A DNA stretch of 64,000 bases from Botryllus schlosseri (taxonomy: Eukaryota), in the NCBI GenBank assembly GCA_051294905.1, contig CM119371.1:8868001-8932000 (forward strand), given 5' to 3'. Below are positions 11,831 through 28,989 of the stretch, one piece after another. The notes under the pieces were generated by a model. That model was not told the DNA's origin, ran no database searches, and was given only the letters and a program-made list of their open reading frames with translations. The stretch's first letter is position 1. Each line of letters begins with the position of its first letter. A program made the translations under genes and the position numbers.

Positions 11831-12940
11831 GAATTTTGCATCGTGGCGAAGTTTAGCACTAATTCTGTCTGGTTCTTGCTCATGAGCTGCAGTCTCGTTT
11901 TGCCAGACAGCTTTGCTGCATCACTATCTCACCATGCCAAATTTCGTTATTGTTATACCGTAGTAGCCGAGTAGGATACAAGGTGCACTCATAACCTAAC
12001 TGCACCAAGCACGAACATTTTTAAAAGTTAATAAATTAGTTCGGCCAATGATAATGTCACTTGCATATATTGCGGGTTGCCTCTGTAACCAGTGGGCTCA
12101 TTTGGTAAACACAGGGTTATTCGGCGCATAGATTTATTCGGAGATAACATTATCGACGATTTTGGTGAAGATGCGCCAATCATTTTGTGCCAAGGTTTCA
12201 TCGCCGACCATCTTTCTGCGAGTGCAGACGCGAAGTCGGATGTTGGACGACACTTTCTCTTATAATGGCCAATATAATCAATTACGTAAATTGGGCGTAT
12301 CTTTATATTGGGAATGGGTACTAAAAGCAAGATATGAGTGACAATAAATCGCGCGAAGTGCTAAAAATATATCAAGTAAAATAAACCTACCACGAACTAT
12401 TCTACTTTATGGTCATATAGGGAGATCTACGAAAAATGTTGCTGGTCACGCCAATGCGTCGGAACTGGTATTTGAGTCACAAACATCCAAAATTTGTGGT
12501 CAGGCAAATCAAAGTTTTGGTTGGTCTTTGAAGTTCAAAGTATATATTAACTAAGTAATTTATTATTTGATATGGTAACTAATTTCGCGAATTATCTTGC
12601 AGGCTACTGAAAATCTTATCTCGGGCCACATGTGGCAGGCAGGCCACTGGTTGGGTACCTCTGATTTATAGATTGTTTATTGTCTGCTATAGACTAGAAT
12701 AATGTTGGGAACTCATGAACCAAACGCCCTATTTAACGGTACATGTGAAACATTTTAGTTTATCATACCATACATCTATAATGTGACGTAATTATTTATA
12801 GATTATATTTCATGATAACATCAGAATTTACATCAAACATTAGACGTAAAAAAATTTTATATTGTAGATTATGATAACATCAGAAATCCCAATTTGTCTA
12901 GGATTATGCGTGCGAAATATGATGACAAGGCTTTTTGCGG

Positions 12941-13122
12941 CATTTAATTTCCTGAAATTCGTGTTATTTACTATTTTTTATTCTTATCCTAAAAGATCTC
13001 CGTATGCTCTCTTCATCAGTTCCATATAGTACCATCATGCAGTATGCACCGTAGTAAATGCCGTCATTCTTATCAGATCATGTCGGTCAATGATTGACAT
13101 AATCACATACCCCATTTAAATT
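12941..13122 (-). repeat. LTR-like terminal direct repeat, 3' copy (segment A 12941-13091 followed by segment B)
   Basis: 12941-13091 matches 48630-48780 with 3 mismatches; contains AATAAA on the minus (coding) strand; lies ~240 bp beyond the env2 stop. Confidence 0.8.
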
Positions 13123-13357
13123 AACTTTCATGACCCGAGGGCAGTTCATTCAACTCTTATTTAGGCCTATTATAATTCATCAAGCACCTTAGGGCAGTTC
13201 AAATCCATAACTTTGATGTCATTTCGACATGTTGTGAGATACGATTTCGAAAGGTTGTTATTATAATCACGCAATATAATCGTGACTCGGAAGCGTATAA
13301 CAAAATAGTTTTTTTTTTTTATTAATTTTTTTGTTCTGTTTTATTAGTACCGTTTTA

Positions 13358-16300
13358 CTATGATACCATAACGCGTCCGCCCAATAGATTATCAGTTTCT
13401 TGTTCTACGACCTCCTTCTCTTGTAACACAGGTCTGGTATGCAACTTTCGCATGCTAATTCCGTGGTGGATGTTTCTATTGACAATTTTCCGCCTTGTAC
13501 TTGATTCTAACTTATTTCTTCTGCGATAATACTTCTTGCTAATGTATATCAAGGCTGCCACGGAAAAAAATAAGATAATGACGACCATCATTAATCTTTT
13601 ACTTTGGCCTTTTATTGGCCCTTGAATATTCCGTACATGAATGCCAGTCATTATGAAAGGTACTAGTTTTACCGAGTAGTTTTCTTCCATCTTTAATAAT
13701 TCATGTAGTTTTTCTGTTAAATTGAGCCTTATCAAAGTGTCTGTGGCATTCTTCGAATCGTACCCCCATATCTCAAGCGTGGAGACAGGGGCTTTAGCAG
13801 TTATCATTTGTGAATCGTTCCCTCCAAGAGTTGGGGGTAGACTTTTAATTGTATTCGGAATGCGAAGGGCCTTAGGGGTTTGTACCATGACCTCCTCTAT
13901 ACGGGAATCATTGAACCGTGTAATTACACGTGTCGTTGAAGGGTCGTCGATATTTTCACTGGACTCATTTATGGTGGTTTTGGTTCTATTGACCAACGGA
14001 TTCGGTTCCCTCGGTTCCGTCATATGCAATTCTCCACTCCTTCCGGCTTCTGGCAATGCTCTGGACATCGATGTACTTCCAGTGCCTTGCAAACCCCGAA
14101 TCACTTTCATCATTAGTATTGTGGCAGCGATACTTGGCGGTGTAGTTCCTGTTCTTTCGGTAGTAATCTCCGTCCCAGAAGAGGTCGTGCCATTTGGTAA
14201 AATTATCTTCGTCCCAATAGCAGCCGTGGTATTCGAGTGCATAGGTTTTATAATCATAACGGTCGGGTTACTCTCCTCCGTTGTACCCAAGGTCGGCCGA
14301 GTACTTAGAATTGTGGTTTCATAATCGTGGTCCCGAGATCGTGATGGATTCCTTATTACTTCAATTCTGTCTTCCAATGTCGAATTTGAGGTGTTTCTGG
14401 AGTAATAACTCAACATGGCTTGTAGAGGTACCTTTAGCGTGGAGGATATAACTGTTTCCGTTCCACTATTTATTAGGGATTCATCGCTATGTGATAATTC
14501 AGATTGGTTCTGTAGAGGGTGGCTTCTAATTGAATCCTTAGTTGTCGTAGAATTTGGGGTGGTCATAATTGTCGTAGAATTTGGGGTGGTCAGAATTGTC
14601 GTAGCGAATTCTGCATAGCTGGACATAGGACGTGTTGTTTGTTCCACCATTACCGTTTTCTCTCCTGAAGGGGTATTCTGGATCATCCTCCTGAGTTTTA
14701 AATTAGGTCTATTTGAAATTGTACTAATGTTCGCTGCATTCCCATACAGAGCGGGTCGTGTTGTTATAACTTCGGACCTCCATACGTCGGGAACAGGGAT
14801 CATGCTCCTTGAATCACTGTATTGTATGGGTTGTGTTGTTCTCACTCTTGAGGGAATAGTAGTACTATTATTCGTTATATTCCAGGGTTCTGTTGTTACC
14901 AAGAATAAATTGTTCCTTGATGACATCGAAAACTTTCCCTCCCCGTCTTTTTTCGAAAGGGTAGCAGTAACTGTTGTATAAGGAACGCCAGTCGATTTTT
15001 CCACAGAAGTGAGTATTGTCATGTTCGTCAAACGGGTTGTATGCGATGTGTTGTTATGATCTACCGGTCCTTCAGTAGGGGGAGAGGTGGGTTTGTTAGT
15101 AAATGGGTCCGGGTTTGTAGCAGAAATGTCCCCAGGCAGGGTGGGCGTCACATTAAAAAGGCGAACAGTAGTGTTAGACATGGACAATGTCCTATCCTTT
15201 CTGGTATCCACTTCAAACACGTTGGGTTGATAATCGGTCGTTATTCTAGCCTTTTCCGGAGGTGGTGAGGTTTGGATTATTTTACCAAGTGCCTCCGTTA
15301 TAGTTGTGTTGATGACGGTCAAATGCTCGTCCGTTGATGACCACAGAGGATTCGCCCTGCTCGTTTCATTTCCCACCACCAAAATCGTACTGGCGTGATC
15401 TGAAAAATTGCTAACACCTTGTTTAGTAAGTCTTCCCCTAATTATTGTCATAAGAGGAGGAGCTTGTGTGCTTTCCGACACATTTCCCGCCGTCGAGGCT
15501 GGGACTTCTATAGTGGTCAACACGTTATTGGGAGCTGCTGTAGTCGTGTTCACCAAACGTAAGCGAGGCCTTTTTTTGTAGGCGTATGGTGTGTAAATAA
15601 GGCTTCCATTCAGAAAGTATGCCTTGTAACACACGTCCGGAGCGAATAGGTTAGTTTGTCGGGATTTTGCTTCCAATAAACTCTGGGCAGTGGCCATTTG
15701 GCTGAACGCTCTGTTCAGCCTTACAGCGTCAGATCCTGAAATACCCTTCTGCTGTCGGTTAATTTTGTTGAGAATCATATTTTTTGCCCTTCTTGGTATT
15801 ATTTCGCGGCTCATAACCATCTTTAACCGAGACCTTATAATAGCTATTGGTCTGGTTAAATTTCTGATTATGTCGACAGCTCGTTTGCGGGCTTGTAGCC
15901 AATTCTGACGAAACCACCCTTCAAGACTTTGTCCATTCGCACCTGACATCGTGAGAAGGAATGCCTGTTCTCTTTTTCTTGCTAATCCAGGAATATGCGT
16001 AAGCGTAGTTCCGACAAATTCTCCTCCGTAGGTGTTGACAAAAATGGGATGATTCAATGATGGATCATACGTCACTAGATTCCCCATAATGAGTTTGGCA
16101 GCCACCCCGCTGAAAGGATTGGTGCACTCTGTTCGGTTTGCGACACGGCCCTGACAGTTCGGATCTAAAGCAGTCATCGACGGGGAGGTTATTTTTATAG
16201 GCATACTCCCTTTCTGACGTCTCTTCGGTCCATCCCGTAATCTGTTGTTGGCATAATATCCGCCCTCCAATGAAATGTTAGCACTCGCCTTAACCCAAAA

Positions 16301-17221
16301 TATTCGATTTGACATCACCTTATCGAAAACTCCTGTGGGCCATAAGTTTTCAGACGCTGCCAGTTGTTCACCATTGTTTATGGGGTTGTCCGTGTTTTCT
16401 CTCGTAGTAAATGTGTCAATAGTAATATCTTCTTCCTGAACAATAAGTCCAAAATCTACAATACCAATCACTGGGTTTTCACCAGTAAATCGACAAGTAT
16501 AACACGTCGGAGATTCTCCTTGAGTAGTTGAGCAGGCATGGAAGTTTCGCATTGTAATGATTAGTCTAAAAGAGACTGGATTCCAATCCCTCGTGCAGTC
16601 AGCTATTACCCCGCGATAGTCTTTGAGCAAACTTATCACGAGAAATTTATAAACAGTCATGATAGGTGTGTACTTATTCCCAGGATTTCCGCGAGGGAGG
16701 GTGAATTGGTTTTCAGCCCATTGCCAAACGAAGCGTGCATCATACTGTTCCGACCGATGGAATCGAATTCGCCTCCCCAGGTAGGAATAATTCAAGGGTG
16801 GTTTTATGTAGAGAATTCTCCTAAGACACGAACAAGTCTGTTCTAACTTCAAAGGATCATCCCAGTATTGACCCTGTGATCCCCTCGGGAGAAGGTTATT
16901 CCGCATTGTTTGTCCAATAGTTTGTATCTTGCCAAACTGGGCATCATATCCGACAATTTCTCCATCAGATTTATAGCGATGTATTTGTTCGGGGTTCGTG
17001 TTAGCCAATGTTATTTCTAAATTGAATAACTCTTGAAGTAGTGCCCTCGAGCTGTTAAACAAGCTCTCGTCATAACGGGTCCATGTCGAAGTGTTCAAGC
17101 TTTCAATAGGTAATATCTTCATGTCAATAAAAGGGACTCGGCCAGTAACATGAGAACGTCCTGACCACGCGGCCGACAGTAAAAGGACCATAACAACGAT
17201 GATGTGATCCAACTTCTTCAT
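13358..17221 (-). CDS. Envelope-like type I glycoprotein 2 (1287 aa): Env1-paralogous N-terminal domain, long S/T/N-rich mucin-like stalk, TM and basic tail
   Basis: Signal peptide MKKLDHIIVVMVLLLSAAWSG; Cys and motif colinearity with the 785-aa ORF; many N-x-S/T sites; TM LMMVVIILFFSVAALIYI followed by KKYYRRR. Confidence 0.8.
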   Translation of the reverse strand: MKKLDHIIVVMVLLLSAAWSGRSHVTGRVPFIDMKILPIESLNTSTWTRYDESLFNSSRALLQELFNLEITLANTNPEQIHRYKSDGEIVGYDAQFGKIQTIGQTMRNNLLPRGSQGQYWDDPLKLEQTCSCLRRILYIKPPLNYSYLGRRIRFHRSEQYDARFVWQWAENQFTLPRGNPGNKYTPIMTVYKFLVISLLKDYRGVIADCTRDWNPVSFRLIITMRNFHACSTTQGESPTCYTCRFTGENPVIGIVDFGLIVQEEDITIDTFTTRENTDNPINNGEQLAASENLWPTGVFDKVMSNRIFWVKASANISLEGGYYANNRLRDGPKRRQKGSMPIKITSPSMTALDPNCQGRVANRTECTNPFSGVAAKLIMGNLVTYDPSLNHPIFVNTYGGEFVGTTLTHIPGLARKREQAFLLTMSGANGQSLEGWFRQNWLQARKRAVDIIRNLTRPIAIIRSRLKMVMSREIIPRRAKNMILNKINRQQKGISGSDAVRLNRAFSQMATAQSLLEAKSRQTNLFAPDVCYKAYFLNGSLIYTPYAYKKRPRLRLVNTTTAAPNNVLTTIEVPASTAGNVSESTQAPPLMTIIRGRLTKQGVSNFSDHASTILVVGNETSRANPLWSSTDEHLTVINTTITEALGKIIQTSPPPEKARITTDYQPNVFEVDTRKDRTLSMSNTTVRLFNVTPTLPGDISATNPDPFTNKPTSPPTEGPVDHNNTSHTTRLTNMTILTSVEKSTGVPYTTVTATLSKKDGEGKFSMSSRNNLFLVTTEPWNITNNSTTIPSRVRTTQPIQYSDSRSMIPVPDVWRSEVITTRPALYGNAANISTISNRPNLKLRRMIQNTPSGEKTVMVEQTTRPMSSYAEFATTILTTPNSTTIMTTPNSTTTKDSIRSHPLQNQSELSHSDESLINSGTETVISSTLKVPLQAMLSYYSRNTSNSTLEDRIEVIRNPSRSRDHDYETTILSTRPTLGTTEESNPTVMIIKPMHSNTTAAIGTKIILPNGTTSSGTEITTERTGTTPPSIAATILMMKVIRGLQGTGSTSMSRALPEAGRSGELHMTEPREPNPLVNRTKTTINESSENIDDPSTTRVITRFNDSRIEEVMVQTPKALRIPNTIKSLPPTLGGNDSQMITAKAPVSTLEIWGYDSKNATDTLIRLNLTEKLHELLKMEENYSVKLVPFIMTGIHVRNIQGPIKGQSKRLMMVVIILFFSVAALIYISKKYYRRRNKLESSTRRKIVNRNIHHGISMRKLHTRPVLQEKEVVEQETDNLLGGRVMVS

Positions 17222-17343
17222 CGTGGTTCTTGTTATAAGTTTATAAATCTTAGTCGTATTCCTATACCTAAATGCAGTTGTTTATGTCATTAGTCTGTCT
17301 TTAGTCACTACTTGTCTTTTCTTATAAAGAATCTTTGTATTAC

Positions 17344-19701
17344 CTATCGCCGAATAGTCAGGGGTGCCATATAAGCCGTATATGTCGTCAACTCATTTCG
17401 GTTATTTCGACCTTGTATCTTATCATGTGTTCTCCTTTTGTTAGGGAAGACGACCGGGTAGAGTTTAATCATACAAATAAGTATTCCGATCACAACCACT
17501 ACAATTATAATCGGTGTGAGTATTCCCGTTAGACTCCCAAATATCGCACCCAAGCCAGAACCAAATAACCCGCTCACTCCGTCAATACCCTGGGAGAGTA
17601 TTTCCCCAGCTCCTTCCGCTACGCTCCGAATAATCGTTCCTGTGCCATTAGCGACGGTCTTAACGGCATCCCCGAAGTCATCAAAGAATTCTTCCCCTAT
17701 TACGCGATTCAAGTGGATAAAACTGATATTATCATACTCCATATTTGAAGTATTTACAAACACGCCGCTGTCCACATCTTCTTGCCAGCGTTGCAATTCA
17801 ATTTCAGCTTGGTAGTCGATGCTCTGTATTTCTCTTCGCGTGTTTTGTAATTCCAACGCCTGATTTTCGGAAACATTTGCATAGTCGCCTTTCAGCTCAA
17901 TCATTTTCTCCGCAATTTCGCGTAGGCTTAAAATCCCTGACTTAATTCGTACAGCGTACGCCTTGTTTCTATCAAATATAGGTTTCGCTGTTAGATTTTG
18001 TAACTCCTGCATAACCAATTGATTAATGCTCAACTCAGCCAATGTCATTTCTTGTACGGTTTGGATCGTGGATAGATAACTATCCACTTGTGCTAATATC
18101 ATGTTTCGATTGGTCCATATCATACTGGTGATAGTTTGGAGCCTTGCCTCGGTAGCTGCTTCCCTTCGCAGATTTGTCAGGATCAACTCGTTCAATTTCT
18201 GAGCCCGGGCAACCCCTATAAGGGAAAGATCGTTTAATCCGTCAGCTACCGTCTTCAAATCATTTTCTATTTGTGTAAATCGGGCGTTCAGTTGCGCAGT
18301 TAAGTCGTCCATATTTTTGTTGATCATGTGCTGTAGATTTGAAGTTACGGCCAGAGTTAAAATTGTCGAGAATGCTAATACGAATAATGAGAAAAACATT
18401 CTTTTTCGCCTTCCCGTCCCTCCTGGAAGTGTAGAATTCCCGTCCTCTAAACCTGTTTTGTGACCTCCCAGTACCACGAGAGGTTTTCCGGGGTATCTTC
18501 TTCGATTGGCCTGGGAATCGTAGATAATGTCGTCCCAATAGGACAGTTTCATGTGCAAGTCCCCAACAGGATATTCACAGGTTGCTTTATTTTCCCGTAT
18601 TCGTCTCACACACCGCTGATCGTCCTTCAATAACGAAGGGTATTGGCGGTATATCGGTAATATTCCCGAAATCTTGATAGGCTTCCTTCCATCCATATAA
18701 TCTAAGCCGTATTTATTCGGATAAGTGGGTCGAATCCAAATTATATTTTCCGGTAAAGTTGGTTTGTCACCCAATATAGCATTTCTCCACACAGGTGCTG
18801 ACGGGTGGTAATTGTGTACTCCAGGCACATATTCCATTTCAATGTCTAGCGACGTCTTTAAATTTCTAGTTGGGTCCTCTTCCTGTATAAGAATTTTGCT
18901 AGGATGGGGTTGATAAGCCACAACCAAACCGCGAAAAGTACAGGTCGTACATCGTAATATCTGGAGTAGACGAACACAATCCACCAGATCTGTAGAACTA
19001 TCGTTGTAGATATTTCTTTGTAACATCATTGCCTCGGTCCTTACCGTATAGGTGACACAATTTATTCTAATACTAGAATATGTGGCAAACATTTTCAACG
19101 CTTTTAATTTATACTTCATAATGGCTATCTGGAATAGGCCGCGAGGATTCCAGCCTCTAATCGTTTCGTCCGTATCGTTCCACCTCCATACCAACCGGTA
19201 ATTATTTCCAGTAGGTCTCACATATACATTTTCCGATTCCAGAGCTTTCAAGTTCAGATCAGGCGTAATATATGCCTTTGTTCGTCGACACAAGCAAGTC
19301 TTTTCGAACGCATTTATATCTTCCCAATAATGCCCAGTCGGATACATGTATTCTTGAAACGTGATCTTCTCGGCCTTCACATAACCAAACGTGGATGAGA
19401 AAAACAATCCAGGGTTACTAAAGTTATAAGTTGAATTCCTTATGTCCCAGCACGACGCTAGAGAAATGTGTTCCCAAGGCGATGATTTCAATTCGGTCCA
19501 ATCTGCGGGAAATTTCTTAGGCAGCCTTCCAAACTGAGCCTGGACTATCGTTCCAGCTCTGTCGTCATAGTATGGTATTGTGCTTGCGGTGGTAGTTATA
19601 TTACTTGCAGATATTGTCGATCCCGTCGTCCTCGGCAATAGCACACTAAGTGTATGAAGCAAGCCACACAAGTAATAATTAATAGTAGAAACGCTGACCA
19701 T
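17344..19701 (-). CDS. env: Envelope fusion glycoprotein-like protein 1 (785 aa)
   Basis: Signal peptide; furin site RRKR (18400-18411) immediately followed by hydrophobic MFFSLFVLAFSTILTLAV; heptad-repeat region; Gly-rich amphipathic membrane-proximal segment; TM IIIVVVVIGILICMI; Kozak context GCACCATGG. Confidence 0.85.
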   Translation of the reverse strand: MVSVSTINYYLCGLLHTLSVLLPRTTGSTISASNITTTASTIPYYDDRAGTIVQAQFGRLPKKFPADWTELKSSPWEHISLASCWDIRNSTYNFSNPGLFFSSTFGYVKAEKITFQEYMYPTGHYWEDINAFEKTCLCRRTKAYITPDLNLKALESENVYVRPTGNNYRLVWRWNDTDETIRGWNPRGLFQIAIMKYKLKALKMFATYSSIRINCVTYTVRTEAMMLQRNIYNDSSTDLVDCVRLLQILRCTTCTFRGLVVAYQPHPSKILIQEEDPTRNLKTSLDIEMEYVPGVHNYHPSAPVWRNAILGDKPTLPENIIWIRPTYPNKYGLDYMDGRKPIKISGILPIYRQYPSLLKDDQRCVRRIRENKATCEYPVGDLHMKLSYWDDIIYDSQANRRRYPGKPLVVLGGHKTGLEDGNSTLPGGTGRRKRMFFSLFVLAFSTILTLAVTSNLQHMINKNMDDLTAQLNARFTQIENDLKTVADGLNDLSLIGVARAQKLNELILTNLRREAATEARLQTITSMIWTNRNMILAQVDSYLSTIQTVQEMTLAELSINQLVMQELQNLTAKPIFDRNKAYAVRIKSGILSLREIAEKMIELKGDYANVSENQALELQNTRREIQSIDYQAEIELQRWQEDVDSGVFVNTSNMEYDNISFIHLNRVIGEEFFDDFGDAVKTVANGTGTIIRSVAEGAGEILSQGIDGVSGLFGSGLGAIFGSLTGILTPIIIVVVVIGILICMIKLYPVVFPNKRRTHDKIQGRNNRNELTTYTAYMAPLTIRR

Positions 19702-19857
19702 GGTGCCGGCACAGGTACGTCGGGAAATTTCATTAATTATAATTTTTTCAAATAGCTGTAAAGTTATCTGTCTGTAAAAGCATAAATAGGGTTAGGCGAA
19801 TTGCGTTCTGTGTTCGAAGCCGTAATATTGTCTCAGAGAGGAGGGATAGAGTATGTT

Positions 19858-20862
19858 TTAGGCGACAGTGGTACCACATACATTGAAACGAGGGTCCTCC
19901 CTTATGGACCTTAACAATGACTCAAATATGTCGTTTCTGTCATGCTGACGTTTGTATAACCACTCATCTACGTACTCTTGTAACAAGTGTCTGGCCAGTC
20001 CACGCGAGCGCCTCATGTGGTGCTTCAGACTAGACCAAGCCGCTTCCTGATCGTTCGTATGCGTCCCATCAGGCGCTCGAAACATAGCGCTATGGTCGAC
20101 TGATCTGTGTTTATAATCTTGCCCCCACTCCTCTATGCCATTATAAGAGGGGTAACAATCCGTTAATATGGTAGATCCCCTGGCTATATTATTTACAAGT
20201 ATACGCTTCATTACCGCTGCCGTCCTGTCAGATGTTATTTCTGCAAACATTTCTCCTGTTGCTCGGTCAAGTCCACCCACAACCCAAACTGCCTTCCGGG
20301 CTGAAGGATCATTGGTCGTGTCGCGACGTCGCTTCGCCAGATGCGACTCGTCCACAACTATGATACTTTGGTAGCCGCCTAGTTTTCGTTTATGTCGTCG
20401 TAAATCCGCAGCACACACTCGTCTCAAGCATCCAGACCAAAACACAATAGATCGGAGGCTAATTTCTGATTCGTGGGAGATGTGATTTTGCGGGCTGTCG
20501 TGGGCCCAGAAATATGTCATTATAAGTAATTCAGGTAGCCCAACCTTGCTATTACTAAATATAGATCCTTTCCGAATAGAGGAGGTTGTCCTGCACTCAT
20601 TTTGTTGGCAGCGATATCTCCATCCATCATCGCTGGCTCCTGTTCGCTCTTCTACCATTGTGGATCTGCATTTTCGACAGGTCATTTGCCGAGACAGTAA
20701 TCCTTGGCTTCTCATGAACATAATGCAATCGCGGGTATTCAGTAAGACTCCAGATTGGGCCAGACGTAGTACATTATGGGGTACTTCTTGAGCGTCTGTA
20801 AGGGTAAAAATAAAATAGGTACAGATATATTCTTGGTTGGTTTGCACCTCTTGTGTATTCAT
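19858..20862 (-). CDS. IS1595/ISXO2-like (Merlin-type) DDE transposase, copy 1 (334 aa)
   Basis: N-terminal CxxC..DGWRYRC..C Zn ribbon, SIRKGSIFS, VVDESH, VWVVGGLDR, STILTDCYPSY, VDHS..F..PDGTHTNDQEAAWS, YVDEWLYK. Confidence 0.9.
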   Translation of the reverse strand: MNTQEVQTNQEYICTYFIFTLTDAQEVPHNVLRLAQSGVLLNTRDCIMFMRSQGLLSRQMTCRKCRSTMVEERTGASDDGWRYRCQQNECRTTSSIRKGSIFSNSKVGLPELLIMTYFWAHDSPQNHISHESEISLRSIVFWSGCLRRVCAADLRRHKRKLGGYQSIIVVDESHLAKRRRDTTNDPSARKAVWVVGGLDRATGEMFAEITSDRTAAVMKRILVNNIARGSTILTDCYPSYNGIEEWGQDYKHRSVDHSAMFRAPDGTHTNDQEAAWSSLKHHMRRSRGLARHLLQEYVDEWLYKRQHDRNDIFESLLRSIREDPRFNVCGTTVA

Positions 20863-20906
20863 GTCTCTTTCTTGTAACTTAAGATAACACTGTGAAATTT
20901 TACTGA

Positions 20907-23900
20907 TTATTGTTTTTTGTCCGCAAACTGTATTACTGCGGAAGGGATGGGTCCTCTACACAAAATTACATCTGGGTTGGGTGACTGCCACATAATCATA
21001 CCCAATTCCCTGATTTTGCTGGCGTCAATTTGTAAAGCCACCTTTCGTCCCCGAGATTTCCCACTTCGGGTTAGGCTAAAGTGAATGTATTTCCGGGGCA
21101 TTCTTTCAAGCTCAGTCTGCATAATCCGTTGAGCGCCATTCCGCGTAGTCATGTGGTACAGCTTGTCGTTACCAGTATATTCCTCATAAGCGGGAGGCTC
21201 ACCCACGGTATGTCCGTGTGCAGCCGCGAGCCCCTCATCTTGAAGAACAGCCCTGGAATTGTTTTGCATGATTGACCTTAGGAAGTGACTTTGGAACTCT
21301 TTCCCCAGTTTTCTCCTTAGGATTTCTTGCAGATGTCCCCAGGGATGAAATCCACCATGGCTGTGGTCACATACCTCGTGCCTACAGTGCCGCATTAAAA
21401 GTCTCTGTATGAATTCATGTCTGGCAGAGTCCAATTCGTTTGGTGCGTCCGCACTCTTCGTCGTAGGTAAAGTGGTCCATACACAAGGGTCGTCTTCCCC
21501 TGCGGCCATTTCCATCCAATAAGAACGAGAAAGCCCATCGGATGTGAATACCTGTAGCGTACTTAAATGAATCACTTTATCTATTTGGAATCCTGATAGA
21601 TGGTTGAGCCATCGCTGGATTAGTGGTTTTGGGCTCGGATTCGCAGCTTTTTCTGTCATCCTTTTCAATAGTCCGAATACCCCTGTATTGTCTGTGATAA
21701 TGGTAAATGGTATTGCGCGCAACATAGATTGCCATTTTTCCACCGAATCTTTTAGAGCTTTGAGCTCTTTTGTACACGGATCATATGCCTTTGCCGTTTG
21801 GGTAGTCCATTTTTGGCTATAAAAAGCAATCGGGTATATCTTCGTAAAGGGCGGTTTTTCTCCTTCTTCTGTCTGAAATATTACGGAACCGAATCCTACA
21901 TCAGAAGCATCGGTTTCGATATACAGCGGGAGTTCTGGGTCCAGATGATATAGTACCCTTGCGTCGTCCAGTAAGGCTTGGGCCACCTTATAATCATGCA
22001 ACAACTCATCGTTCCATAGTAAGGGCGTTACTCTTCCTTGTGTGGCCGGTACTTTCCCCGTTAACGCGTCGAACTTTGCTAGCTTCAGGCTCAATTCAGG
22101 TATGTGTTCTGAGATGTATCTCAATGCCCCGATCCAACCCCGTAGCTCATAAATGTTATGAGGTGGCGCAAGTTCTTTCAGGGCTCTAACTCGTTCGGGT
22201 TGGACCTCAATTTCTTTGCCTGTTAAGGTTGCGCCCAGCAGATTCACTCGCCGCTTGCCAATGAAACACTTATTGATGCTCACTGTCAATTTCATCTTAG
22301 CCAATTGTTCAAACACCATTCTGAGCAGCACCAGGTGATCCTCAATGGTCTTTGTGCTCAGGAAGATGTCATCAATGTAGGCCTCCATAGGCGTCACAGT
22401 GGACTCATCAGTCCTCCCACATTCTCGCATGAAGCGTTGATAATTCTCAGTGATGGGTTTAACCACACATTCCTGCATATTTGAAGTCCAAAGGGCTACT
22501 GCGGTCCGAAGACCCATTGGCATCTTTCGCCAGCGTATATGCCTGCCCTTTACGGCAATGCCTACGTATTGTTTTGATCTTTCCGTCATTTCCATGTGAA
22601 AATAGGCCTTCTTCAAATCCAATAGGGATAGTACCTCACGACCTTGAGCAAGCTGCTTCACGTCAGGTACTAATGGAGGGGGTACCTCTATGGATTTGAT
22701 GGCTGCATTAAGGGGTTGGAGATTCTGTACAACCCTCCATGCCTGTTTCCACCCGCCTTCTTGCTTCTGTCTTTCGTTCATTTTTTGAGGTACTACAAAT
22801 ATGGCCAGTTTCCATTCAGCAAATCCTTGTTCAATGACTTCGAGATCTAAAAAATTATCCACAGCCTCTTTTAAGGCTTTTGCCTGTTCTTCGCCCTTTA
22901 GATTATAAGGCCCTGACACAAAAGGTTTGGTTGAAGGGTCCTTCAATTCGATGTCACATTTGTATTTCATGGCTTGTGGGGCTTTGAGGTGTCCTCGTAG
23001 ATCTTCAAGTTCCGTAGCGTAAGGTTGATATACCTTCCTCCATTCTGCCTCAGGTACGATAGTGTTATCTGGGCTGGTAAGATCCGGTGGCTTATAGGGT
23101 GATTTCGCCAGTTCTACAGCTTGTTTACACAATCTTTCTAATTCGTCTCTAACGTCTGTCTTGGTCCCTTTACACAGTTCATACGTAGTTATCGGACCGC
23201 GAATTGGCCTGGTTGGGCCTTGACGTATTTCCGGTACCGATGGAGAGGGGGCGAGGTCTCCTTTGGTCAGTGGGGCTTCCACACTCGACTTGTTCTGCCT
23301 CTGAAATAGGCGCGTGCCCGCACCTATTTTCACGCCGACGACTCCCTTTTCCCTTGTCGCCGGGGGCCCTTTTTCTGGTAGGGTTTGCATATTTCCTCCA
23401 GACTCTTCGTCATCCACCCTGTTCTCTTTCCCAGAGGAGATGGCGACAGCTGCATTTGAAATAGTTTTCTCGGTTGGTGGCACGACGAATGCGACCATCG
23501 GGTCGTGGACAATATGTCGGCCGTTTTTATCAGGATCCTTCCATACGCCCGTGTCCTGATTATTGCTAGCGGGAATTCTTCGCTCAGCATGATTGGATTT
23601 GGGGGGGACACTACCCCCCATATTGAGATTAGCGTGACCGGACGTCCTCCCTTGTGCGCTAAATCTCTCCGAGAAAGAGGGATTGCCGAAATCCCGAATA
23701 ACGTCAGCGGGGCTTCCACACTCGACGTTGTAGAATGTCGCAGCTTCCATCGCTCCGTCACCAGAAGCAACGTTGCAAGTGCTACTTCTGTTTCCGGTTC
23801 CTTCATCGCCAATTAACGCGGCAAACGTCAATTCATTATTAACTGCAGTAGGGTCTTTAAATTCCATTTCTATAGATGGAAGTTGCTGAACTTGGTCAAT

Positions 23901-24323
23901 CCACTTCAACCCTATAATATTTAATGGTACTCTATCACCAGTCGCAAATGGAACTGGTAAGCCATCTATCATGATTATTATCAGGTAATCAACACAGGAC
24001 AATCCACCTATGCCGCGCAATTTCATTTCGAAAGGTTGCCTTTTGGCCCAACTAAGGGGGTATTTATCCTTGGCTACCTCCTTCAAAATCAGATTTGGGA
24101 CACTTCCCGTGTCGGCTAAGAATTTAGTTCCTGTTTTTTTGTCCATTAGGTACAATAAACGACCACCGAACAATTCAGTAAAGTCAGCCTGTGGCGTATT
24201 GTCCGGTATGTCGAGAAAAGTAAATAGGGGTAAAGAAGAATTATGTACAGTTTTAACGTGGTAAGGTAACACTGATTCGGGCAACTGATTTACCGGATCC
24301 ATCAGTGCCCCCAGTCGTTTTTT
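20907..24323 (-). CDS. pol: Pol polyprotein (aspartic protease, spacer, RT, RNase H, Tpt1/KptA-like domain); probably made as Gag-Pol by -1 frameshift; no integrase
   Basis: LADTGS protease (24105-24113); RT motifs WRVVQNLQPLN, LDLKKAYFHM, MPMGL, YIDD (22368-22379), LLG; Ty3/gypsy-type RNase H ETDASDVG..PIAFYS..KELKAL..IITDN. The ORF-track start at 24362 is TTG. Confidence 0.92.
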   Translation of the reverse strand, partial: KKRLGALMDPVNQLPESVLPYHVKTVHNSSLPLFTFLDIPDNTPQADFTELFGGRLLYLMDKKTGTKFLADTGSVPNLILKEVAKDKYPLSWAKRQPFEMKLRGIGGLSCVDYLIIIMIDGLPVPFATGDRVPLNIIGLKWIDQVQQLPSIEMEFKDPTAVNNELTFAALIGDEGTGNRSSTCNVASGDGAMEAATFYNVECGSPADVIRDFGNPSFSERFSAQGRTSGHANLNMGGSVPPKSNHAERRIPASNNQDTGVWKDPDKNGRHIVHDPMVAFVVPPTEKTISNAAVAISSGKENRVDDEESGGNMQTLPEKGPPATREKGVVGVKIGAGTRLFQRQNKSSVEAPLTKGDLAPSPSVPEIRQGPTRPIRGPITTYELCKGTKTDVRDELERLCKQAVELAKSPYKPPDLTSPDNTIVPEAEWRKVYQPYATELEDLRGHLKAPQAMKYKCDIELKDPSTKPFVSGPYNLKGEEQAKALKEAVDNFLDLEVIEQGFAEWKLAIFVVPQKMNERQKQEGGWKQAWRVVQNLQPLNAAIKSIEVPPPLVPDVKQLAQGREVLSLLDLKKAYFHMEMTERSKQYVGIAVKGRHIRWRKMPMGLRTAVALWTSNMQECVVKPITENYQRFMRECGRTDESTVTPMEAYIDDIFLSTKTIEDHLVLLRMVFEQLAKMKLTVSINKCFIGKRRVNLLGATLTGKEIEVQPERVRALKELAPPHNIYELRGWIGALRYISEHIPELSLKLAKFDALTGKVPATQGRVTPLLWNDELLHDYKVAQALLDDARVLYHLDPELPLYIETDASDVGFGSVIFQTEEGEKPPFTKIYPIAFYSQKWTTQTAKAYDPCTKELKALKDSVEKWQSMLRAIPFTIITDNTGVFGLLKRMTEKAANPSPKPLIQRWLNHLSGFQIDKVIHLSTLQVFTSDGLSRSYWMEMAAGEDDPCVWTTLPTTKSADAPNELDSARHEFIQRLLMRHCRHEVCDHSHGGFHPWGHLQEILRRKLGKEFQSHFLRSIMQNNSRAVLQDEGLAAAHGHTVGEPPAYEEYTGNDKLYHMTTRNGAQRIMQTELERMPRKYIHFSLTRSGKSRGRKVALQIDASKIRELGMIMWQSPNPDVILCRGPIPSAVIQFADKKQ
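20910..21425 (-). other. Tpt1/KptA RNA 2'-phosphotransferase-like domain at Pol C-terminus
   Basis: Colinear family motifs: CRH (LRH), GGF (dGw), IMQNNSR, AAHGHT (RAnqGHS), LYHMT (lyHGT), ERMPRKYIHFS (kpmkRqhVHLS), ALQIDA, QSPNPDVILC..PIP. Confidence 0.8.
24262..24323 (-). promoter_or_regulatory. -1 programmed ribosomal frameshift signal (A AAA AAC plus stem-loop/pseudoknot)
   Basis: In the gag frame GCA AAA AAC (24317-24323); pol is in the -1 frame; downstream GGGCACTGAT pairs with ATCAGTTGCCC, and loop GGTAA could pair with a later TTACC. Confidence 0.8.
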
Positions 24324-27295
24324 GCTAATCTCAACCCCTGGTCCAATTCCTCGTCGGTCCAATATGGATTAATACGGGATTGTGGGGGATAATATGGCTG
24401 GGTCCATGCTACCGTATCGGCATTGTGAGTGGGTCCCCGTGGTCCCCATTGATCTCTATCGCGCCAATGGGTCCTGTCTCTATTCTTAGGTCTTTCGTTA
24501 TAATACGTGTCACACAGGGCTGTTCTCTCAACAAATGAAGGGGACCCTTGTGAGGCTAAGTATCGATCCAAATCAGGTATCGAGAGTAGTCGATTTTCAG
24601 TTAGAAAAGGACGCCAATTCCTTTCTACAAATTCCTTTATGCGAGGTGGTACAGGTCGTCGTCGCTTTTGGATTACCCATCCCTCGGTATCGTCTTTAGT
24701 TAGGACCTCCTCATTCAGCCATAATATGAATTTGGCTACGCAATTTCGAGATTGGTGCCCTGGTGCCTTGCAATAATAACATACAGACAATGTTTGCCCC
24801 TCTGACGGGTTCAAATATAAGCCTAGAGGTGCAAAAATATTGGGGTTACCAAGGAAATTATACCTCTCACCTTGACTGTTGGAAATCTGGCTCGCCTCGT
24901 GGCTACTCGATGGAGTTGCTTGAGAATAGTCCCTTCCGAAGCCCGAATCCTGCGTCTGCGAAAATCGCGGTTGTCCTCGGTTTAATGTTCTCCTTTCCTG
25001 GTTCGGTCGCGAGGTCGGAGAGTTCTGAGAGTAGTGACCGTTACCTCTATCTCCCGCTGGACGTCTCTGCGAAGGCGAGATCCCCTGTGGTCTATTCGCT
25101 ACCCCACCCTTCGAAGTGGGTCTTTCCCGACTGGGATTTCCGTGGGCTATTACCGTCGTGGGGAATCGGTTCGTCTTTGCGGCCCTGCCTGGGTTTATCC
25201 TTGTCACAGGCTGGTACGTTGTCCGGGCGCGTCTTCCGACGTCCATAGGTTGTCGACTCTGAGGTGACACGTTGTTGAGCATAGATTGTGAAGAGGGAGA
25301 GGGCGAGTTGATAATGGGGGGCGTGGGGGTACGTATCGGCTGGGAATTGTCTATTCTCCCATTTCCAGTGGGCTGGGTTGGGTAGCTAGGCATCATGTGT
25401 CCGGCAGGTTGTACATTGTAAATATGTACGGGTGGCAGAGAAGGAGCACTTACAGCGTGTGCCTTTTTGTTGGGAGCCCTCGTCTCGCTAGGGAACCTCC
25501 CTTCTTCCTGATCGTCTAGGAACTCGGAATTCCAGAACATCTGTAACTCCTCAGCCACTTGTTGCCACGTCCCCTCTTCCCAACCGCGGATCATCATTCT
25601 CAACGCCTGAGGCAGTTGACGTCGTAGATGTCTGAACAAACGCAGCCCGTCGGGGTTTTTCTTAATGTAGCTTCCCATATTTATTTCGAGTTGCTTCAGC
25701 ACACTATTCAACAACGGCAGTGGTTCTTCATTCCAGGAGTAATTACTCCGAAATTCGTTAATGATCTTTTCGTTATTCACTAAACCTTGAGGGTTGGAAA
25801 GGTTGAGGGACCTCATAACGGAAAACCAACTCGGTTTGCCCGAGTTGGTGTTGAAAAAGTTTCCCAACTGTCTGGCCTGCTTTATACGTCCTGCCTGTCT
25901 CAGCTTTTTCTGCATGGCGTTTGATAAGATTATATCTTCGTTCGTATCCCCCTCTCCATGATCGATGCGAGCCATCGTATTAGCCATCCATTTAACAAGG
26001 GGCATGTCGTCCGGGTCCATCATGAGTTGCATCATTTCCTTTTCGGTTTGTAATCTGATAGGCCGTTCCCCAGCGTGGAACTCACGTGCTTGACTCGGGG
26101 TCCCCAATTCCCCTGGTGGATTGCAAGTATAACCTTGTTGCTGTTCTACAATTCCTTCCTCACTGTAATCAGGAGTGGACTCAAACCGTGGGGAACCAGC
26201 GGTGAATCGAGACGGGAAGTAAATCTGCCTAAAATTGCTAGGATCGCGGAGAGCGTCTTGTGGTTTGTGGCCATTATTGTTAAGGATAGAAGTCTTGGTT
26301 TCCCTATCTTCTAGGGGACCTCTTCCAATCCTTTCAAAAGTAACGTGCCTGGTTTCGTCTGGCTCGCTCCTCGCTCGTCTTTTGACGGAGATTTTATCGC
26401 TTGTTCGTTGACCGTCCTGTCCACGTTGGTCGTCCTGCCTACCCCGGTCTCCTCCTATTCGTACCAATCCGGCCGCCCCATGATACTGTTTCGTGGAGTC
26501 GTGTTCATGTTGATCTTCCACGCTCGGTCTAGGACGGATCGGCGTGTACATGTCAGTGGAGGGACGTCCTGATGATACGGTCGGAGGGCCGTCCGGCCCA
26601 AATTTATCCAAGGATTTCGAGCGTCTCATCCCTTTGGCACTAAGCAGTCCCTGACCGGGACTGGCTGCCAGTCTAAGAGCGGGACTGGCTGGTTGTAGGT
26701 TTCCGGTTTTTTGAATCGGTTGTTGCTGGGGTGATTTGTGTGTTGGACCTTCCGACTGAGTCTGGGGGGAGGCCGTATATACAGCTGTAATTGTATGGCA
26801 ATCAAGTCCTTTGCTCACATGAAATTTGGGCCTAAGGACGGCTCCCCCCCATGACGGGTTTGTTGGGTGGTGATATGCTGGTGGGGGTGAAGTGGGTATT
26901 ACTGTTAGCGCGTTAGATGGTCGAGAGGTCTCCCCGATTACCGACGCATGTTCCTTTCCGAGGTCGAATTCAGCCTTCAAAACTTCGTTTAGTACATCTG
27001 TGGAAACTTTACCACTGACCTTGGTGGTAGCGTCACATACTGCTTTCAAATCAGCCTTAGCCTGTTTTACCTCTTTCTTTATTTTGTCCAATTCTTTCAT
27101 AGTACCCGGCAGGACTGTTTTGACTTCCTTCAGCAGTTTGGTTTGGTCTGCGACACTTTGAGTGAGTCTTTTTTCCTGATCCTTTACATTTTCATGGCGT
27201 AATTGTGTGGCTCTGAACAGCTGAATTCCTTGTTCTAATTCCGCAGCTGTCTCCGTTGATCTTTTCTTTTTGAACAACTTCACCATTTTTTCCAT
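24302..27295 (-). CDS. gag: Gag-like polyprotein (997 aa)
   Basis: N-terminal coiled coil, PPAY motif, central helical domain, CCHC knuckle CYYCKAPGHQSRNC (24740-24781), position directly upstream of and overlapping pol. Confidence 0.85.
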   Translation of the reverse strand: MEKMVKLFKKKRSTETAAELEQGIQLFRATQLRHENVKDQEKRLTQSVADQTKLLKEVKTVLPGTMKELDKIKKEVKQAKADLKAVCDATTKVSGKVSTDVLNEVLKAEFDLGKEHASVIGETSRPSNALTVIPTSPPPAYHHPTNPSWGGAVLRPKFHVSKGLDCHTITAVYTASPQTQSEGPTHKSPQQQPIQKTGNLQPASPALRLAASPGQGLLSAKGMRRSKSLDKFGPDGPPTVSSGRPSTDMYTPIRPRPSVEDQHEHDSTKQYHGAAGLVRIGGDRGRQDDQRGQDGQRTSDKISVKRRARSEPDETRHVTFERIGRGPLEDRETKTSILNNNGHKPQDALRDPSNFRQIYFPSRFTAGSPRFESTPDYSEEGIVEQQQGYTCNPPGELGTPSQAREFHAGERPIRLQTEKEMMQLMMDPDDMPLVKWMANTMARIDHGEGDTNEDIILSNAMQKKLRQAGRIKQARQLGNFFNTNSGKPSWFSVMRSLNLSNPQGLVNNEKIINEFRSNYSWNEEPLPLLNSVLKQLEINMGSYIKKNPDGLRLFRHLRRQLPQALRMMIRGWEEGTWQQVAEELQMFWNSEFLDDQEEGRFPSETRAPNKKAHAVSAPSLPPVHIYNVQPAGHMMPSYPTQPTGNGRIDNSQPIRTPTPPIINSPSPSSQSMLNNVSPQSRQPMDVGRRARTTYQPVTRINPGRAAKTNRFPTTVIAHGNPSRERPTSKGGVANRPQGISPSQRRPAGDRGNGHYSQNSPTSRPNQERRTLNRGQPRFSQTQDSGFGRDYSQATPSSSHEASQISNSQGERYNFLGNPNIFAPLGLYLNPSEGQTLSVCYYCKAPGHQSRNCVAKFILWLNEEVLTKDDTEGWVIQKRRRPVPPRIKEFVERNWRPFLTENRLLSIPDLDRYLASQGSPSFVERTALCDTYYNERPKNRDRTHWRDRDQWGPRGPTHNADTVAWTQPYYPPQSRINPYWTDEELDQGLRLAKNDWGH

Positions 27296-27301
27296 AATTA
27301 T

Positions 27302-27532
27302 TTAACTAGTTTCGTTATATGGAAAATTTCTAACAGGAAATAGTGCCTCACTTGTTGATTCCGATATATTTACCGAGTTGGGTAGACCAAGAGTGGGGGC
27401 AGTAGAAGTAGGAGGGGCCACAGTAGGAATTAAGTGAAAATACAAGGAATCCAAAGTGACCAGTAGTGTTATGAGTGAAGCGACGACGAAGATGAGAAAG
27501 GCTCCGCCGAAACAACACGTTTTGAACCGCAT
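27302..27532 (-). CDS. Small single-pass membrane protein (~76 aa from ATG) abutting gag
   Basis: Hydrophobic run AFLIFVVASLITLLVTL; stop codon 6 nt before the gag ATG. Confidence 0.45.
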   Translation of the reverse strand: MRFKTCCFGGAFLIFVVASLITLLVTLDSLYFHLIPTVAPPTSTAPTLGLPNSVNISESTSEALFPVRNFPYNETS

Positions 27533-28443
27533 CAGATCGTCCAACCTCAAAACTAATTTTGTTATATCTTCGGGGAGAATGTGTTTATCACCTTAAGTGT
27601 CTTTTCAACGCTGTTAGGTATCCCAGTGGTGCCTCCAATAGTTTTAAGTGAAGCTCCACGGCGATTGCACGTGCGAGTATGTCTCCACTTGGTTCGGTAT
27701 CCTTCCAGTGTTGAAATTGCACTTGTATGGTTCTTCACACCCTATTCCGCGCTTATGGTTGATTGAAGTAAATGCAATGACCGTTTGATTGAACAATTCA
27801 TCAATCTTTTACCGGTCCAGCGGCCAGATCTTGGTCTATACTATAAGATAAATCTTAATACAACCTTAATACAACCAAATACTCCAATCTTAATCACGTT
27901 CAATACTCGGAAAAGGACTATAGCGAATATAAATCAACACATGACTTAGGCTATCAATCCATCGTTCAAGTACATCACGCAATTATATAATGATCTTCAC
28001 ACCAATTCTCAATATTATTTCGCAAATCCTACAGTGAATGGGTCTTGCCTAAAGTGTTGGGTTTATTATACTGTTAACACAGGTTTTTGTTATTCCATCC
28101 TTGTTTTTCGTGGTCATTCACTGGTAGTTTTATTTAGTTTATGACGTCATAGCATTTCCAGGGCAAGCAATTCCCGTTCCTACGATAATCACACTATAGG
28201 GGCATGTGATTTTCAATCCACCTAGGCACAACTCATTCACTGCTATTCATCCCCATTAGAGGAATTGTAAAAGGACTGAATCCACATATAATACGATATT
28301 GTCTTAGACCTAAGTAAATGTAATCATGTACGCACCAGAAATAATTAAAGACACAAGTATTTACACACAAATTTAGTTACGCTTTGTAATATACACAGTC
28401 GCCATTAACAATTGCCCCCTGGTGTATTTCATTTTAGCGGACT

Positions 28444-28989
28444 TCATTGGTATCCTGGGTCCGCATAATCCAAACTGTATTGGTTAATTCTCTGTCGTCG
28501 GTTCTTAAGAGTATCAAATACTTTTGAGATATTTTGTCGTGTTTGGCGCCTCCCGGAAGTAACCAATATCTCTGTTGGCGCCCCTCTTTGTGATTCTTCG
28601 GTAATGGTACTTTTCAGGTATTGCCTTACCCTTCCCAGCTTTTGTTCCGCATCTCCCTCGGTGGACTTATGTATTGTTCTGCATCCTTTTATGATCTTCA
28701 ATACCTTCAGGGATCGCTCACGGACTTTGTCCGGATTCTGTTGTTCTCTTGTCTCTGCAGGTTCAGCAGATATAAAAAATCTATGTAGTATATCATTGAG
28801 GGCCTTCAGGGTAGGCTTTTCTATGTTACTCATCAACCCAATCAGGATGTCGAACTCCTCGATGGTTGCAATTAGTGCTGTATTTACACTGTAGCTTCTA
28901 GAATGAGAGATCTCAATTCTCTTGATGTTTCGGCAATGAGGCATGTTCCCAATCGTCCAATTCTTCTTAATACACCTTAGGGTGTACAA
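28444..28989 (-). CDS. Hypothetical helical/basic protein (181 aa; first ATG 28944)
   Basis: Uninterrupted ORF, same strand as the cluster; no recognisable motif. Confidence 0.5.
   Translation of the reverse strand: MYTLRCIKKNWTIGNMPHCRNIKRIEISHSRSYSVNTALIATIEEFDILIGLMSNIEKPTLKALNDILHRFFISAEPAETREQQNPDKVRERSLKVLKIIKGCRTIHKSTEGDAEQKLGRVRQYLKSTITEESQRGAPTEILVTSGRRQTRQNISKVFDTLKNRRQRINQYSLDYADPGYQ

Follow-up and report, generated by a model that had tools for sequence, protein, structure and literature searches.

The window analysed here is a stretch of 64,000 nucleotides from Botryllus schlosseri (assembly GCA_051294905.1, contig CM119371.1, forward-strand positions 8,868,001 to 8,932,000). 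It contains retrovirus-like genes together with two genes for transposases of the IS1595 type, TnpA and TnpB. On the sense strand the order is an accessory region (o172, o170), TnpB, o166, gag, pol, TnpA, env1 and env2 (Table 1). An initial annotation of this DNA had read TnpA as a DNA-transposon transposase that was captured as the integrase of a reverse-transcribing element and that sits in the integrase slot between pol and env. We propose that TnpA is probably one of two IS1595/Merlin-type DDE transposases of a family of giant endogenous retrovirus-like elements, 26-45 kb in length and present in many copies, in which it would serve integration.

The TnpA open reading frame (ORF) starts with an ATG and contains no internal stop codon. 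It matches the Pfam family PF12762 (DDE_Tnp_IS1595) with an E value of 1.9e-13 and 51 bits, the cutoff being 27. The pol stop codon lies at 20907-20909, 44 bp from the TnpA start codon, and TnpA is separated by 156 bp from env1, which starts at 19701. All three ORFs are on the minus strand, and the ORF coordinates thereby confirm the tight arrangement described in the initial annotation. The intact D-D-E candidates named there (VDE, TD, NDQE) are borne out as well. They correspond to D171, D235 and E273, which are invariant in all 13 transposase sequences of the same genome and at least 90% conserved in an alignment of 60 sequences that includes distant homologues. In this alignment K280 is conserved, too, as are four cysteines (C62, C65, C85, C90) that belong to a zinc ribbon at the N-terminus. 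The AlphaFold2 model of TnpA has a mean predicted local distance difference test (pLDDT) score of 90.9. Its closest Foldseek matches in the PDB are retroviral integrases in intasomes and the Mos1 transposase (E 4e-6 to 1e-4, template modeling scores of 0.3-0.45), while a search for PDB sequence relatives found none. The predicted fold is integrase-like, with a zinc module and an RNase-H-like core, as expected. The TnpA frame stays open for 46 nt 5' of its ATG and thereby runs, in the -1 frame, into the last part of pol (20907-20955, minus strand). The overlap spans an A6 run (GAC AAA AAA CAA TAA), where the heptamer is non-canonical in the pol frame; slippage might in principle yield a pol-TnpA fusion, but nothing found here supports one.

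Upstream of TnpA, pol carries a retropepsin-like LADTGS motif near residue 61, read from the sequence, and the reverse transcriptase (RT; RVT_1, residues 519-693) and RNase H (residues 763-905) domains called by Pfam, followed by a Tpt1/KptA-like domain (residues 988-1117). An integrase domain was not found in the window pol. Scanning 149 stop-to-stop ORFs of at least 60 amino acids between 13326 and 48506 gave no match to integrases, tyrosine recombinases or other nuclease families beyond the two IS1595 domains. Likewise, 18 ORFs of another copy of the family, C10, gave no match to rve (PF00665 or related), Phage_integrase-type or other nuclease domains beyond the transposases. The gag-like ORF shows a single CCHC knuckle as a weak Pfam match (E 9e-4, just under the curated cutoff). 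The slippery heptamer A_AAA_AAC is kept at the gag-pol junction in five of the five copies checked, and from the sequence we conclude that the pol of these elements is reached by -1 frameshifting. The Tpt1/KptA (RNA 2'-phosphotransferase) domain is fused C-terminally to RT-RNase H (20910-21440, minus strand; pol residues ~960-1131) and matches solved Tpt1 structures at an E value of 7.7e-9. Such a domain is present on the pol of C10 and on a 45%-identical protein, P0160. Aligned to a solved Tpt1 (9ld4), the enzyme's IRARYGHS reads LAAAHGHT in pol, so that the arginine-bearing motif is changed.

Two glycoprotein-like genes follow TnpA. In env1 the N-terminus is signal-like and the C-terminus has a membrane anchor; in between are an RRKR site with a hydrophobic stretch behind it and a long helical/heptad region, and env1 resembles a class I fusion glycoprotein in this respect. 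In the ESM Atlas its look-alikes, which score 0.88-0.89 and so stay under the 0.9 line, are class I fusion proteins of viruses, which we take as a lead only. The AlphaFold2 model of env1 (pLDDT 31.5, six sequences) was unusable and gave no structural support, and no sequence relatives of env1 were found in the PDB. The second glycoprotein, env2, has an N-terminal domain paralogous to env1 (22-25% identity), then a mucin-like region rich in Ser/Thr and, at the C-terminus, a membrane anchor. The second transposase, TnpB, matches PF12762 with an E value of 3.5e-19, is 41% identical to TnpA and keeps the DDE triad and the zinc ribbon. It is found upstream of gag also in the copies C1 (24289737-24290666) and C10 (4959385-4960320).

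A search of the 495-Mb assembly showed that the window element has many relatives. Among the 120 TnpA matches listed, 51 have at least 50% identity, and 48 of these are free of stop codons; the roughly 50 TnpA copies are dispersed over at least 16 contigs. For pol we obtained 41 main matches with 62-73% identity, 38 of them stop-free. A pol gene followed directly by TnpA, with gaps of 81-86 bp, occurs at six other loci, where TnpA is 59-61% identical to that of the window, and TnpA lies between pol and env at seven loci including the window. At no fewer than 20 other loci TnpA is located upstream of pol at a distance of 10-36 kb; the two genes share one strand there, and a TnpB-type match usually lies between them. 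In those upstream-TnpA copies with a visible 5' terminus (C8, C2, C10) TnpA starts ~270-300 bp from that terminus. The idea of an integrase slot therefore holds for the window and six further loci and fails for the others: judged by these gene orders, the position of TnpA between pol and env is lineage-specific and the slot is not conserved.

Gene orders were mapped by tblastn of the window proteins on 240 kb around five other copies, with TnpA of C12 placed by coordinates. The window, C1 and C12 share the order accessory-TnpB-gag-pol-TnpA-env1-env2, while C10 and C8 have TnpA-env1-env2-accessory-(TnpB)-gag-pol. C2 begins TnpA-env1-env2, and gag-pol was not seen within the C2 stretch read. TnpA is present and joined to env1-env2 in all six loci examined (the window and the five copies); sister elements lacking the transposase, which would have spoken against its capture, were thus not encountered. 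Identity to the window ranks C8 before C1 before C10 for gag, pol, TnpA and env1 alike, and because this ranking is identical across the four genes we conclude that they co-diverge. C8, the closest relative of the window copy, has the other gene order.

An indication of how these elements integrate comes from their ends. In C10, C8 and C15, the three elements for which both ends could be placed (39.2, 25.7 and 45.0 kb), the insertion is flanked by perfect 8-bp target site duplications (TSDs) that differ in sequence and sit in unrelated host repeats. For C10 an empty-site control is available, since the insertion lies in one arm of a foldback repeat whose arms are 99.3-99.5% identical: the mirror arm reads a single GAAAAATA, and in the filled arm the element has a copy of GAAAAATA on either side. 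C10 starts with GGTACTTGTG... and ends with ...CACTAGTTCC, an imperfect inverted repeat matching at 9 of 12 positions. C8 has AACATTTT on both flanks, starts with GGTACAAGTG and ends with ...GAGTTCC. In the case of C15 only the 3' end and its flank were read directly. The 3' flank CGATTGTT combined with the 5' terminal motif has exactly one exact match in the genome, 44,952 bp upstream on the same strand, which places the 5' end. The terminal motif was recognized at four further single ends (C2 5', C1 3', C12 3' and one end of the window copy), whereas a search by TSD and motif gave no match at the right place for the 5' end of C1, and the missing ends of C2 and C12 were not found within the stretches read around them. 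The consensus is 5'-GG[T/A]AC[T/A][T/A]GTG ... CC-3', with GG...CC at every end seen. Merlin elements are described as having terminal inverted repeats (TIRs) of 24-462 bp that begin with 5'-GG, and TSDs of 8 or 9 bp; elements of the IS1595 family are described as usually having 8-bp TSDs (PMC8101967, in the part of that source available to us). Because the GG...CC termini and the 8-bp TSDs agree with this description in these two points, the ends of the giant elements carry, on sequence grounds, a transposase-family signature rather than a retroviral-integrase signature. The TSD length that the initial annotation had expected in other copies, 8-9 bp of the Merlin type, is hence found in all three placed elements. 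Its remark that no TIRs or TSD surround the gene is right for the flanks of the ORF, where a search for the GG...CC-type motif adjoining TnpA found none, and has to be revised for the element, which has them at its outer ends.

These data also bear on the simplest objection, namely that an independent, ordinary Merlin element was nested by chance between pol and env of an endogenous retrovirus without any functional link. More distant, ordinary-looking IS1595-type copies (26-32% identity to TnpA) are indeed found in the genome. However, the terminal motif does not flank the ORF, the gaps to the neighbouring genes are very short, and it is the entire unit of 26-45 kb that lies between the TIRs and TSDs. 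Furthermore, the pol-TnpA adjacency recurs at six loci whose TnpA is already diverged from that of the window, TnpA travels with env1-env2 wherever examined, and it co-diverges with gag, pol and env1. We regard a chance nesting as highly improbable.

Selection on the genes argues in the same direction. The ratio of nonsynonymous to synonymous substitutions (dN/dS) of TnpA is 0.08-0.19 within lineages (nine pairs), which indicates purifying selection, a point on which the initial annotation had wanted data. Between copies of one lineage we obtained 0.10 for pol, 0.09 and 0.21 for env1, and 0.62 and 0.66 for env2. Divergence at synonymous sites (dS) between same-lineage copies goes down to 0.03-0.04, with dN/dS below 0.2. 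From these values it appears that the transposase, the RT/RNase H and the fusion-like glycoprotein were all maintained while the lineages spread. The ratios of TnpA, pol and env1 therefore speak against dead cargo as well as against a chance nested insertion. They also bear on the view that the loci are fossils without activity, or gene clusters domesticated by the host that multiplied through segmental duplication, with end signatures arising by coincidence. The window copy by itself might suggest this, since its genes show no RNA-seq depth in four runs and its lineage is single-copy, with the nearest pol at 71% identity. Three independent perfect TSDs in unrelated repeats, the dispersal over many contigs and the low dS combined with low dN/dS stand against it, and this explanation seems to us improbable, if somewhat less so than chance nesting.

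The transposase thus appears to be the integration module of the family. That it carries out integration is suggested because neither rve domains (in the ORFs of the window and of C10) nor long terminal repeats (LTRs; in C10 and C8) were found, while inverted repeats and 8-bp TSDs are present at the ends. The family would then have given up its retroviral integrase and LTRs, or have been without them from the start. As far as can be read from the sequences, the element is no simple gag-pol-env unit, but a giant with TnpB, two glycoproteins and, in some copies, genes for an inhibitor of apoptosis (IAP), an E2 and leucine-rich repeats (LRR). C10 (39 kb) also carries uninterrupted, intronless LRR, 3xBIR+RING IAP and E2 ubiquitin-conjugating ORFs on the strand of the core genes. 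Nearly all element genes lie on one strand, and in C10 only a hAT insertion nested in the element and two open frames on the minus strand, which overlap pol, depart from this. We envisage that the element is transcribed as one long RNA, which would be packaged by Gag and copied by the element's own RT, and that TnpA, perhaps with the help of TnpB, would insert the resulting double-stranded DNA with its terminal repeats at cuts staggered by 8 bp. The retroviral module would serve replication and perhaps cell-to-cell transfer. A use in replication is suggested because the frameshift signal is conserved, pol and env1 are under purifying selection, the genes are on a single strand and the cargo is intronless.

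The main rival is that the elements are giant Merlin-type DNA transposons that move only as DNA, either by cut-and-paste or by replicative transposition, and carry gag-pol-env as cargo for purposes other than copying the genome, for example for particle-mediated transfer between cells. Under both readings the transposase would be the integrase. Much of the structure is what DNA-only transposition would produce: TIRs and 8-bp TSDs where no LTRs and no terminal redundancy were found, a length of 26-45 kb, and a 45-kb copy (C15) in which two short pol fragments directly precede a 3' part of 1.32 kb that is shared by ~430 candidate places. The fusion of a DNA transposon and a virus, moreover, has a precedent in Teratorn (PMC10175614, as far as the accessible text goes). 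On the other hand, purifying selection is as strong on pol as on the transposase, and the frameshift heptamer is kept in all copies checked. The one-strand arrangement of C10, with the exceptions given above, and the single uninterrupted ORFs of the IAP, E2 and LRR cargo count against it in the same way. These four features fit a passage through RNA and do not prove it. We consider exclusive movement as DNA rather unlikely, and still by far the most serious competitor of the retrovirus-like reading.

Several observations weigh against the retrovirus-like reading and have to be set beside the evidence for it. The reverse transcription of the element, with RNA or cDNA as substrate of integration, is something we infer. 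This divides the claim of a transposase captured as integrase of a reverse-transcribing element: the integration role is backed by the lack of rve and LTR matches, the TIRs, the TSDs and the dN/dS values, while the second half stays conditional. A size of 26-45 kb is, to our knowledge, larger than that of any known retroviral genome. No terminal direct repeat of 100 bp or more is present at the ends of C10 or C8, the two elements read entire, nor an R-like terminal redundancy, the only match being one of 16 nt in C8. By eye no convincing primer-binding site was seen in the 5' regions, although no scan with host tRNAs was made. The inverted repeats are imperfect and, at ~10-12 nt, shorter than the range reported for Merlin in the part of PMC8101967 cited above. 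The copies C8 and C12 lack TnpB. Lineages differ by a circular permutation of the gene order, with the ends falling between pol and TnpA or after env2, which we cannot explain. Moreover, the last 1.32 kb of one lineage recurs with fixed limits at the ~430 candidate places mentioned above, which fits a DNA transposon equally; C15 is the one such place read, and there this segment is the 3' part of the 45-kb element. Depth over the genes of the window copy was ~0 in four RNA-seq runs (12600-32599), and the pile-ups in this interval lie only at A/T runs with adapter-like loose ends. For the window copy itself, the proposed ends are the only passing pair of 156 tried, where ~0.2 would be expected by chance, and the TSD matches at 7 of 9 positions. 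Finally, C1 has, at the equivalent place upstream of its accessory genes, a homologue of o368 (45595-46701), an ORF situated beyond the candidate 5' end of the window copy.

The shared 1.32 kb (C1:24306496-24307815; L024:6496-7815) comprises the end of env2 and the 3' end and contains TATA-like and AATAAA motifs. A search of the genome for head-to-tail abutted ends (circle junctions or tandems) gave no match. The two unlike element ends and the two transposase paralogues might go together.

Further relatives were sought in several ways. A word-indexed protein search returned only four relatives of TnpA, whereas an exhaustive HMMER search with TnpA returned 5,829 IS1595-type proteins. The nearest homologues outside the lineage are 35-40% identical, one of them from Ciona intestinalis. 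Of the long HMMER matches, ten were scanned; none contained an RT, and tandem transposase predictions were found instead. The one close relative of pol is P0160, a 1003-amino-acid RT-RNaseH-Tpt1 protein, and the remaining RT relatives have at most 25% identity, most of the Ty3/gypsy-type ones carrying rve. A scan of viral contigs for relatives found nothing, and a metagenome scan found one marine contig (L039) with a gag-pol relative that ends inside pol. In the full-text literature, with subscription journals and Repbase reports outside the search and some sources accessible in part, we found no published retrovirus-like element with an IS1595/Merlin transposase. As far as searched the elements may be previously undescribed, and an earlier description is possible.

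Comparison with known systems helps to place the family. [quoted passage not shown] Merlin elements are small, have a single gene and are reported to lack an N-terminal zinc finger (PMC8101967, available text). In contrast, the family has repeats of ~10-12 nt, a four-cysteine zinc ribbon, two paralogous transposases and retroviral genes, and with 25.7-45.0 kb and at least seven genes it is neither small nor single-gene. From its sequence we regard the element as Merlin-like at its ends, yet as no ordinary member of Merlin. Teratorn of medaka, a piggyBac transposon fused with an alloherpesvirus, is termed the first case of a cut-and-paste transposon being joined to a DNA virus, and the accessible part of the review lists no retroviral counterpart (PMC10175614). 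Like Teratorn, the family combines a virus-like genome of giant size and multiple copies with a cut-and-paste DDE transposase and TIRs for integration. The partners differ, as Teratorn joins a DNA virus with piggyBac in ~180 kb, and here gag-pol-env is joined with IS1595/Merlin in 26-45 kb (for Teratorn, same part of PMC10175614). The core of the initial idea, a Teratorn-like use of a transposase by a virus-like element, is well supported by the presence of TnpA at all six loci examined, the TIRs and the 8-bp TSDs.

Among retroelements, the planarian Burro/GYPSM1 elements are giant gypsy-like LTR retrotransposons of more than 30 kb. They resemble the family in having gag, protease-RT-RNase H, a fusion-glycoprotein-like env and accessory domains related to apoptosis (BIR) and ubiquitin, which correspond here to the IAP and E2 of C10. 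However, Burro has an integrase, LTRs and one huge polyprotein (PMC6431247, within the portion accessible for all these points). In the family described here the ORFs are separate, the transposases are of the Merlin type, the copies show TIRs and 8-bp TSDs, and neither integrase nor LTRs were found. With the Ortervirales it shares gag, a pol with protease motif, RT and RNase H, and the gag-pol frameshift heptamer, and it differs from them in the rve integrase, the long terminal direct repeats and the 4-6-bp TSD, which is 8 bp here. In DIRS-like retroelements an unrelated recombination enzyme, a tyrosine recombinase, replaces the retroviral-type integrase, and the termini are not LTRs. Our family differs from these by its DDE transposase and 8-bp TSDs, and no tyrosine recombinase was found. 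The repeat analysis of C10 and C8 revealed no DIRS-like inverted terminal repeats (ITRs) with internal complementary regions and no split direct repeats.

If our interpretation is correct, the family would parallel Teratorn on the retroviral side and show retroelements a third way to integrate, besides integrase and tyrosine recombinase. LTR elements and retroviruses use an rve integrase, DIRS elements a tyrosine recombinase, and long interspersed nuclear elements and Penelope-like elements endonucleases. Integration chemistry defines the retroelement classes, and a retrovirus-like lineage that integrates by a Merlin/IS1595 transposase would add a new one. Tentatively, and with rather more doubt than for the role of TnpA itself, these elements might represent a new order of reverse-transcribing, enveloped virus-like elements without LTRs or retroviral integrase, with genomes several times the size of any known for retroviruses, that captured a pair of IS1595/Merlin transposases whose substrates would be short terminal repeats of asymmetric sequence, and that carry anti-apoptosis and ubiquitin genes. 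Such elements would escape LTR-based annotation tools, and domain-based ones would misfile them as "Merlin". The exchange of modules between DNA transposons and viruses, so far known with a herpesvirus in Teratorn, would be extended to reverse-transcribing elements. A mechanistic problem is raised at the same time, namely how the ends of a 26-45 kb element are regenerated without LTRs, or which other role the RT might have. The RT-fused Tpt1-like domain, the paired transposase paralogues and the permuted gene orders are testable leads.

The boundaries of the window copy are less clear than those of C10, C8 and C15. The terminal motif is present in the correct orientation at 12738 (plus strand) and 43686 (minus strand), with an inverted repeat of 9 of the first 11 positions, and the candidate 3' terminus lies 620 bp past the env2 stop. 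The true 5' end may lie beyond 43686, because o368 would otherwise fall outside the element, and we judge the chances of the boundaries given in Table 1 to be about even. No empty site was obtained for the window copy; on its left side lies a repeat (2,305 candidates in the genome) that stops 60-80 bp before the terminus is reached. A 164-bp direct repeat (12941-13104 and 48630-48792, 96%) was considered as an LTR and rejected, as its similarity stops abruptly and none of its seven genome matches adjoins another element. One copy of it is situated ~200 bp inside the candidate 3' end, the other 5 kb beyond the candidate 5' end. A 520-bp inverted repeat (10809-11320 / 44084-44596, 79%) brackets the candidate element and recalls the position of C10 inside a foldback repeat.

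Table 1. Features of the window and of other copies of the family. Positions are window positions unless a copy or an L number is given.
Feature	Position	Strand	Basis or remark
TnpA, IS1595/ISXO2 (Merlin-related) DDE transposase, 334 aa	19858..20862	(-)	Pfam match, alignments, AlphaFold2
TnpB, second IS1595-type transposase, 311 aa	30024..30959	(-)	Pfam match, alignment
pol, 1131 aa; retropepsin-like motif, RVT_1, RNase H, Tpt1/KptA-like domain	20907..24302	(-)	Pfam and sequence read
Slippery heptamer A_AAA_AAC, 13 nt before gag stop; pol in -1 frame	24317..24323	(-)	sequence read
gag-like ORF, 997 aa, one CCHC zinc knuckle	24302..27295	(-)	weak Pfam match
env1, 785 aa, fusion-glycoprotein-like	17344..19701	(-)	sequence read directly
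env2, 1287 aa, mucin-like glycoprotein	13358..17221	(-)	paralogy to env1 and sequence read
Whole element, best current estimate, 30,949 bp	12738..43686	(-)	candidate termini and flanks
Candidate 3' terminus; plus strand GGTACATGTGAA, sense strand ends ...CATGTACC	12738..12749	(-)	terminal motif
Candidate 5' terminus, uncertain; sense strand GGTACTTGTTAC	43675..43686	(-)	terminal motif
Left flank CTATTTAAC, candidate 9-bp TSD	12729..12737	.	7/9 match with right flank CTATTGAGC at 43687-43695
C10 element, 39.2 kb	C10: 4938397-4977597		TSD GAAAAATA, 8 bp
C8 element, 25,710 bp	C8: 10238110-10263819		TSD AACATTTT, 8 bp
C15 element, 44,952 bp	C15: 3355329-3400280		TSD CGATTGTT, 8 bp
C10 cargo ORF, LRR	L028:7664-8713	core-gene strand	ORF scan
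C10 cargo ORF, IAP	L029:1491-3233	core-gene strand	ORF scan
C10 cargo ORF, E2	L029:4458-4976	core-gene strand	ORF scan
C1 cargo ORF, LRR	L022:5495-6631	core-gene strand	ORF scan
o166, ORF between TnpB and gag	28444..28944	(-)	ORF call
o170, accessory ORF, paralogue of o172	31148..31660	(-)	homologue just upstream of TnpB in C1, C10
o172, accessory ORF, weak PWP3A-B_C match	38024..38542	(-)	homologues upstream of TnpB: C1 65%, C10 53% identity
Inverted repeat, 634 bp, 97% identical, arms 842 bp apart	2760-4869		
ORF of a hAT-type transposase with Spin-doc zinc finger and hAT dimerisation domain	49972-51789	(+)	
Fragment of unrelated RT	52928-53803	(-)	
NACHT/NOD2-type gene	61498-62925	(+)	

The repeats into which other copies are inserted were distinguished from the elements themselves. 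Direct repeats of 552 bp around C8, with a 5-bp TSD, were considered as LTRs of the element and proved to belong to an unrelated, non-autonomous LTR element of 2.6 kb with 467 candidates in the genome. This enclosing element (C8:10234643-10266075; L037) has LTRs of the form TTTAACG...CGTTAAA and the TSD TCAGT, and its sites resembling a primer-binding site and a polypurine tract are on the opposite strand. Inverted arms of at least 7.3 kb around C10 were similarly considered as DIRS-like ITRs and turned out to be a separate foldback repeat, with arms 1,043 bp apart when empty. This insertion target (C10:4930001-4938396 and 4977598-4985683) has 330 candidates in the genome. At the 5' terminus of C2 the directly adjoining sequence is a 6-kb array of a 159-bp satellite (C2:26520234-26526148).

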